Shown: positions 46,191 through 46,453 of the stretch, piece by piece
Layout: each line of letters begins with the position of its first letter
How positions within the stretch are numbered: the first letter of the stretch is position 1
Source of the DNA: Candidatus Spongiihabitans sp.
GTDB lineage: Bacteria; Pseudomonadota; Gammaproteobacteria; Arenicellales; Poriferihabitantaceae
Direction of reading: 5' to 3'
DNA length: 64,000 nucleotides
Assembly (NCBI GenBank): GCA_965206355.1
Contig: OZ242212.1
Location: 1,527,541-1,591,540, forward strand
Program-made: the position numbers and the translations under genes
The notes under the pieces: generated by a model
The model's input: the letters and a program-made list of their open reading frames with translations, nothing else
The model's database searches: none
Told to the model about the DNA's origin: nothing

Positions 46191-46277
46191 GTCTAACAAA
46201 AACATGCACTCGGACAAAATAAAGCTACGCCGCTTCGCTCTGCAACTTTATTTTTCCGGTGATGTTAAGCGTTAGAT
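46191..46277 (+). other. attC site
   Basis: GTCTAAC-AAAAACATGCACTCGGA...TCCGGTGATGTTAAGC-GTTAGAT. Confidence 0.88.
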
Positions 46278-46311
46278 CGGATCGCTCGCTCCGCGAGCGA
46301 TCCGATCTAAC
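46271..46311. repeat. Perfect 41-bp palindrome (body of gene-less cassette)
   Basis: GTTAGATCGGATCGCTCGC-TCC-GCGAGCGATCCGATCTAAC, 19-bp arms. Confidence 0.95.
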
Positions 46312-46453
46312 GGCAGCCGACAATGAGTATTGCCTTTGTGAGACTACGACGCTTCGCGCTCCGTCTAACAAAGACAATCAACGGGAAATTTTTAAATGAC
46401 CTTACAGGTAATCTCATGTTAAAAACTCCCGTTATTGTCGGCTGCCGTTATGT
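46305..46453 (+). repeat. Long symmetric attC-like repeat, copy B (149 bp)
   Basis: Near-identical to copy A; TAACGGCAGCCGACAAT/ATTGTCGGCTGCCGTTA is a perfect 17-bp inverted repeat. Confidence 0.9.

Follow-up and report, generated by a model that had tools for sequence, protein, structure and literature searches.

Integron cassettes that lack genes and recur within arrays have been described before, and the literature is cited here for the parts of each source that were available. The paralogous non-coding cassettes of Vibrio (Boucher et al. 2006, PMC1382264) are ORF-less, multi-copy in arrays and conserved across species; they reach up to 45 copies and were proposed to be selfish or regulatory. 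The Vibrio gene-less cassettes tested by Blanco et al. (10.1101/2023.11.21.568050) are 491-666 bp long and carry ordinary attC sites of 101-127 bp. Promoter-bearing ORF-less cassettes, sRNA-Xcc1 and an 'empty' Xanthomonas cassette are likewise gene-less or RNA-bearing and sometimes repeated within an array, and the available descriptions give them a classical attC. Unusual cassettes of attI type are the subject of PMC12901181. The attC of a canonical cassette has the order R''-L''-L'-R', an unpaired central spacer and extrahelical bases (PMC5027507, PMC2727003). Finally, cassettes can insert outside att sites, at a GWT consensus, by attC x attG recombination that disrupts genes (Loot et al., 10.1101/2022.09.11.507474).

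The unit described here is, by its boundaries and targets, an integron cassette, but it is not a carrier of a canonical attC. It shares with canonical cassettes the G|TT crossover, the complementarity of R' and R'', a bottom-strand bias, GAA-type loops and a fixed orientation. It differs from them in that the R box proposed to be cut has its spacer paired and lacks an extrahelical base in the stable fold, its L box lies on a side arm next to an unused second core, and its R''-to-R' length of 149 bp exceeds the 57-141 bp stated for attC in the available part of PMC5027507. The Vibrio cassettes of Boucher et al. resemble it in being ORF-less, repeated and conserved across species, whereas the unit folds whole into a dumbbell with a non-canonical site and is about a third as long as those of Blanco et al. 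Unlike the promoter or RNA cassettes it has neither a promoter consensus nor an Rfam match; the repeated 'empty' Xanthomonas cassette is set beside it by description only. Like the insertions of Loot et al., it disrupts genes at GWT outside att sites, but here the insertions are natural and the element is gene-less. That non-coding cassettes can be multi-copy, and that they may be selfish, has been published before; we found no description of the dumbbell architecture, which appears to be new within a literature searched mostly without subscription papers.

Unit copies and cassette arrays in the source genome

We analysed a 64,000-nt stretch (the window) of the source genome, G000. Its cassette array and the parts of the best-preserved unit copy are as follows.

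43497..52934, + strand: integrase-less cassette array (CALIN) with 14 cassette ends by hand count, 5 of them unit-derived
43497..43664, + strand: copy at the array's left end, whose palindrome lacks the first 12 nt of its left arm and has a flipped loop
46271..46311, + strand: palindrome P of the whole copy, its left arm opening with the G|TT crossover that is R' of the upstream attC
46305-46311: outer R'', which closes the right arm of P; the 3-nt loop of P is GGA on the bottom strand
46312..46324, + strand: left arm of stem S, in gapless pairing with 46434-46446; together with P it forms the 32-bp stem of the circle
46329..46378, + strand: hairpin A, in which a degenerate second core, GTG (46338-46344), pairs with the inner R'' TAAC (46366-46369)
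46379..46433, + strand: hairpin B, an attC-type L stem with extrahelical positions 46379 and 46387 and a bottom-strand GTA loop
46434..46453, + strand: right arm of stem S, then the unit's own G|TT crossover (46447/46448), beyond which lies the NnrU cassette
48929..49106, + strand: second whole copy, a diverged 174-nt circle; this variant and its neighbours are the same as in genome G211
50693..50732, + strand: relic copy reduced to the outer stem, with P, A and B deleted, which now closes a cupin cassette
52779..52934, + strand: array-terminal copy fused to the upstream attC, with R' of that attC and the left arm of P deleted

The palindrome, its coordinates and the four copies (43497, 46271, 48929 and 52779) reported in a sequence-only reading of this DNA are all confirmed, the 19-nt palindrome arm giving 6 matches at up to 3 mismatches and none in 100 shuffles. 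However, only the copies at 46271 and 48929 are whole, and the relic at 50693-50732 had been missed. Similarly, the statement that every copy sits exactly at a cassette boundary holds for the right ends, where G|TT is present in 4/4, but for only two of the left ends.

A second array, 19 kb further on, contains five more copies, one of them whole. In the two arrays together, 10 of 24 cassette ends (hand count) are unit-derived, in 9 different neighbour contexts, and 7 of the 10 copies have been fused to or severed from upstream sequence by deletions, most of them at short repeats. The other three arrays of G000 contain no copy of this sequence family (family I). The sole integron integrase in the genome is a 5' fragment 730 kb away, truncated next to an IS110 remnant; its arrays are therefore CALINs, and the unit is probably immobile there at present.

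Other features lie in or near these regions. Just left of the array, a CesT-type chaperone gene is followed by an Ulp1-like (C48) protease gene (41589-43354 of the window), an effector-like pair. At 51110-51160 a deletion-truncated attC joins the second glyoxalase cassette to a start-less outer-membrane beta-barrel gene, and at 54599-54730 (- strand) an isolated 132-nt fragment resembling 16S rRNA (Rfam E 7e-7) adjoins an IS remnant. Elsewhere on the chromosome (L003:168-725; G000:C1, about 1386.4-1387.0 kb), evenly spaced CRISPR-array-like repeats adjoin a partial tyrosine recombinase gene.

Fold of the unit and position of its recombination site

The copy at 46271-46453 consists of palindrome P, one arm of stem S, a 4-nt linker, hairpin A, a single unpaired base, hairpin B, the partner arm of S and G|TT. 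P is a 41-bp palindrome with 19-bp arms and a 3-nt loop. The predicted fold is far more stable than expected by chance (z = -13.7 against 200 shuffles), and the circle predicted from 46272-46447, as proposed earlier, is 176 nt long and 82% paired, with one continuous 32-bp stem (19 + 13 bp) capped by the 3-nt loop at one end and by the two hairpins at the other. Stem S has neither an extrahelical base nor an unpaired spacer. Hairpin A is the most conserved stretch of family I and has a GCGAAGC mini-hairpin on the bottom strand as its tip; the extrahelical positions of hairpin B are spaced as in host attC sites. Reading hairpin B as an inverted 56-bp attC was dropped, as no copy has a junction at its ends. 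Five ORFs of 23-50 aa touch the unit, and all of them either run out of it or are broken by indels in relatives, in agreement with the earlier judgement that it has no credible ORF. Across families the unit measures 159-193 bp, and its only cargo is a 35-nt palindrome.

Several observations bear on whether the fold belongs to DNA or RNA. Of 21 family-I rows, 19 have mini-hairpins of the form GCG(N/NN)AGC on the bottom strand; on the top strand they are seen in only 2, the two with a flipped P tip. Host attC sites show a related motif with the same bias, 15 of 21 having it on the bottom strand and none (0/21) on the top. Such loops are described as having high stability in DNA but far lower stability in RNA (PMC13037366, in the part available), and a bottom-strand GAA loop as typical of attC (PMC5027507, likewise). 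The bottom strand gives the better fold in 7 of 8 whole copies; the count of wobble-pair types, 21 for the top and 27 for the bottom strand, does not decide between them. Families I-III have no match in Rfam, and sigma-70 promoter and terminator consensus sequences are absent in three families. The bottom-strand GNA tips thus point to single-stranded DNA rather than RNA, and the suggestion in the sequence-only reading of a structured ncRNA cassette finds no support.

The position of the recombination site is less straightforward, since the unit contains two candidates for R''. In the circle, the outer one pairs with the crossover core at a probability of 0.985 and the inner one at less than 0.0001; to impose the inner attC, which looks canonical, takes 20-25 kcal/mol in families I-III. 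The outer site spans 149 bp from R'' to R', the inner one about 90 bp. In the stable fold, the spacer of the outer site is paired and an extrahelical base is absent. With IntI1, deletion of the extrahelical bases combined with spacer pairing cut bottom-strand recombination 8.5 x 10^4-fold, and pairing alone 27-fold (available part of PMC2727003); by IntI1 rules, the outer site should thus be nearly dead. The inner site has spacers of 6/10 nt (families I and III) or 5/8 nt (family II), the canonical value being 5-6 nt per arm. Extrahelical bases are absent from the outer stem, but the L box kept by arm B in families I-III has two of them, spaced as in host attC sites. In the stable fold, the addition of arm A gives a site with canonical geometry and a core that is degenerate (GTG/GTC) in families I and III, and no copy that we read has a junction at this core. 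The alignment of 8 members from three families shows no variation in the inner TAAC or the L box, an argument for the inner site having a role; within family I, the TAAC is altered in 4 of 21 rows. In favour of the outer site as the place of cutting are a copy in genome G615 that adjoins intI and lacks hairpin B, and a cupin cassette whose point of fusion with the unit is identical in three genomes where its neighbours differ; both, however, could partly postdate insertion. The distance from crossover to junction is 13, 11 or about 15 bp depending on the family, so that there is no single conserved geometry. Two further proposals fared poorly: that the palindrome disables the upstream attC (in the only copy where this attC folds, the probability went from 0.60 to 0.51), and a 'ratchet' that masks the site after insertion, which held in only 2 of 3 copies.

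Distribution, related families and insertion sites

Family I, at 81-100% identity and in whole or partial copies, occurs in 12 other genomes: G211, five MAGs from a genome scan (8 loci, 7 of them real) and six genomes among 100 relatives of the Cycloclasticus MAG. The five MAGs are labelled Pseudohongiella, Cycloclasticus, Halieaceae, Amylibacter and alphaproteobacterium. The Halieaceae genome has 20 matches, which represent about 14 distinct copies or relics. IS and cassette genes on the Amylibacter-labelled contig are near-identical to those of G000; this contig may be mis-binned, and we therefore do not claim transfer between classes. IntI scored above the family cut-off in 9 of 12 carriers tested, with only the fragment in G000 and none in two fragmented MAGs. 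Family I was absent from 60 relatives, 242 other genomes of the same order and 100 relatives of genome G498; among 400 scored genomes of the class, only G211 gave a real match, four others of 19-25 nt being due to chance. A covariance model applied to 150 genomes of the phylum, with few candidates scored per genome, again found only G211. There was no match in phage records or viral contigs and none of note in plasmid records. Eleven viral matches to a looser pattern were dropped as not palindromic, and L105 and L247 are chance pattern matches. A metagenome scan with the palindrome core as sole query gave 62 matches, all in REP-like repeats and none (0/62) with the rest of the unit; at these loci (L040-L101) the core lies within a GC-rich REP-like repeat family unrelated to integrons.

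Unrelated sequences with the same dumbbell plan were found as first cassettes at attI sites adjacent to intI. Family II (159-161 nt) lies at attI in G211, with 4 matches in that genome, 7 whole copies in genome G481 and one in G000; the G000 dumbbell (C1:1962215-1962258, - strand, locus L253) follows a host attC and is near-identical to a G211 copy. Family III (182 nt) follows an attI-like site in G225, and family IV (193 nt; L165:1099-1292, - strand) is the first cassette in G615 at the attI of a second intI, which has an internal stop. The fold is common to all four sequence families, although families I-III are only 54-66% identical to one another, and double changes affect 19 of 51 consensus pairs across these three. 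Within family I they affect 11 of 72 pairs, a value reached in 2 of 500 shuffles by a test that relatedness inflates. Of 11 intI loci that we fetched, 10 were readable, and a dumbbell comes first in 3 of these 10, two belonging to families newly met; the loci were taken from family-I carrier genomes, so this rate is not general. In the G481 array by intI, units make up 6 of 13 cassettes, the first of them at attI, and are never adjacent but alternate almost strictly with gene cassettes (p = 0.016 for random order), a pattern that could equally come from loss of tandem copies.

With attI defined from intact intI loci, family I begins exactly at the attI crossover in six clear cases, one of which adjoins an intact intI, and it follows intact attC sites in G000, G211, G611 and G618. 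Most intact left junctions are at attI or attC, and copies within arrays have a single orientation. R'' is perfectly complementary to the core at the unit's start, and the two covary. The unit is not confined to cassette arrays, a point raised in the sequence-only reading, but also lies at attI remnants and non-att sites. In genome G497 it lies within an N6-methylase gene of the opposite strand and breaks it: removing exactly 176 bp restores the frame, and the uninterrupted site in G000 differs at one position in 81 bp and shows no target duplication. For a G615 copy, empty sites were matched in two relatives, and the right junction is G|AT. Such clean empty sites without duplication, together with G|AT, fit attC x attG insertion and exclude an ordinary MITE; scattered copies with target duplications had been named beforehand as the mark of a MITE or REP. 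The G615 copy has inserted into a short palindromic repeat that several genomes of the Cycloclasticus group (L143, L205, L219) contain more than once.

Genomes G498, G494, G602 and G618 (L110, L115, L117, L133, L144, L145, L153) contain many orphan attI sites without a neighbouring intI, and the unit is often in first position at these sites. A link between the unit and the loss of intI is possible.

Explanations for a gene-less dumbbell cassette

Taken together, the G|TT junctions and the attI and attC positions support a gene-less, multi-copy cassette of IntI type, and the unit is very probably moved by IntI. The earlier proposal that it exploits IntI is consistent with the cassette-type boundaries, but an intact integrase is absent from G000 and the site, once folded, does not form a canonical attC. 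The accompanying idea of a selfish structural mini-element fits best. With a probability of roughly 0.55, we interpret the unit as a selfish, integrase-dependent dumbbell cassette that multiplies by semi-conservative excision, a step that we infer, and frequent reinsertion. Host IntI would excise the bottom strand as a 176-nt single-stranded circle, predicted to adopt a dumbbell shape closed by hairpins; copies would then be reinserted by IntI at attI, behind attC sites and wherever a GWT occurs by chance. Replicative, semi-conservative resolution, as described in the available part of PMC3458562, would leave one daughter with its donor copy and so raise the copy number. The crossover may be made within the fully paired 32-bp stem, in view of the pairing probability of the outer R box in the circle and the cost of forming the inner attC. 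At the three-way junction, arms B and A could jointly restore an L box that has two extrahelical bases; they are likely to recruit IntI, which would compensate for the features missing from the cut site. After insertion, the palindrome would often be deleted, and the unit's site would then close the upstream gene cassette. Such a selfish element would require no benefit to the host. No end-to-start circle junction is listed in the assembled contigs of six runs, contigs of this kind being no proof of absence.

In plan the unit resembles a double-stranded attC with a hairpin sealing each end, from which one strand's L stem would have been lost; its likely origin would be an inverted duplication or a hairpin-ended side product of IntI. 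A second strand exchange by IntI is described, in the part of PMC3458562 available, as yielding covalently closed linear products, and this suggests that such products may have given rise to the dumbbell. More tentatively, the four families may represent a class of integrase parasites: hairpin-capped dumbbells that present IntI with an attC arm in constant extrusion, are cut at the adjoining paired core in a way that present attC rules do not cover, squat at attI and donate sites by deletion-fusion.

Alternatively, the unit could be a regulator of use to the host, acting as an IntI decoy or Holliday-junction mimic with R-L-R-L arms, to which IntI would bind with little cutting, as a plug of attI, or as a donor of sites to its neighbours. 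Conservation across families of two R-box arms and a canonical L box (with the second core degenerate in I and III) would be expected of such a function, as would the frequent first position at attI, the near-alternation with gene cassettes in G481 (p = 0.016) and the 7 of 10 G000 copies fused to an upstream cassette. We consider this unlikely, because the insertions into a methylase gene and intergenic sites look parasitic, tandem-copy loss also explains the alternation, most chromosomal copies are decaying, and folding brought no loss of the upstream attC in the one copy where this attC folds. It is more doubtful still that the unit is a promoter or small-RNA cassette like sRNA-Xcc1 or the gene-less cassettes of Vibrio and Treponema. 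Promoter activity is documented for gene-less cassettes in the available parts of 10.1101/2023.11.21.568050 and PMC8876359, a location ahead of gene cassettes would suit a promoter, and covariation is also expected of RNA; yet Rfam gave no match (families I-III), sigma-70 promoter and terminator consensus is absent (three families), and the conserved motifs are all motifs of IntI sites, with DNA-type GNA loops on the strand opposite to array transcription.

If the unit were a non-autonomous transposon (MITE, REP or IS110/IS1111-type) with att sites as its targets, moved by a transposase, this could account for the copies outside arrays. Also in favour, unrelated REP-like repeats contain the palindrome core, intI of G000 is cut short by an IS110 remnant, and IS110-type elements likewise leave no target duplication. 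However, the junctions lie exactly on the IntI crossover of attI or attC, the complementarity of R' and R'' covaries, there is no target duplication, nothing else in G000, its IS elements included, matches the unit, and none of the 62 metagenome matches to the palindrome core carries the rest of it; a transposon thus seems very improbable. We give equally little credence to a hairpin-ended satellite DNA that would also replicate extrachromosomally, with IntI as its resolvase and integrase. The dumbbell plan and the flipped P tip in two rows would suit a satellite, but tip flips also arise through template switching. In two runs, contig depths summed over the unit exceed the depth of its flanks by a factor of hundreds, but summed depth is not copy number and many chromosomal copies in several organisms explain it. 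Similar mini-hairpins are described at the priming sites of single-stranded phage origins (PMC13037366, in part), whereas the contigs of the six runs list neither a circle nor a dimer junction.

On the preferred reading of a selfish cassette, the unit challenges the structural rules for IntI substrates, since a predicted site that should be near-inactive belongs to the commonest cassette of these arrays and to 3 of the 10 first positions examined. If its side arm licenses cutting at a paired core, this would be new recombinase chemistry, useful for designed sites. The unit is also a synthesizable test case for whether multi-copy non-coding cassettes are selfish or useful, and annotation tools based on attC may miss or miscount such units. 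Its insertions break genes and rewire cassette ends, and the handover of sites by deletion-fusion, if true, would be one route to new cassette ends.

It counts against this reading that some copies have spread as parts of larger blocks rather than by their own insertion, namely the block shared with G211 and a duplicated cupin-glyoxalase block, as does the lack of family I in the other three arrays of G000. The shared block (47118-50188 of the window, L026) comprises cassettes for an EcoRV-like endonuclease, a Dam-type methylase, the unit, a glyoxalase and a membrane protein, all near-identical in G211, a genome that belongs to a different family and whose IntI shares only 49% identity with that of G498. 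This block is apparently a recent transfer of an array segment.
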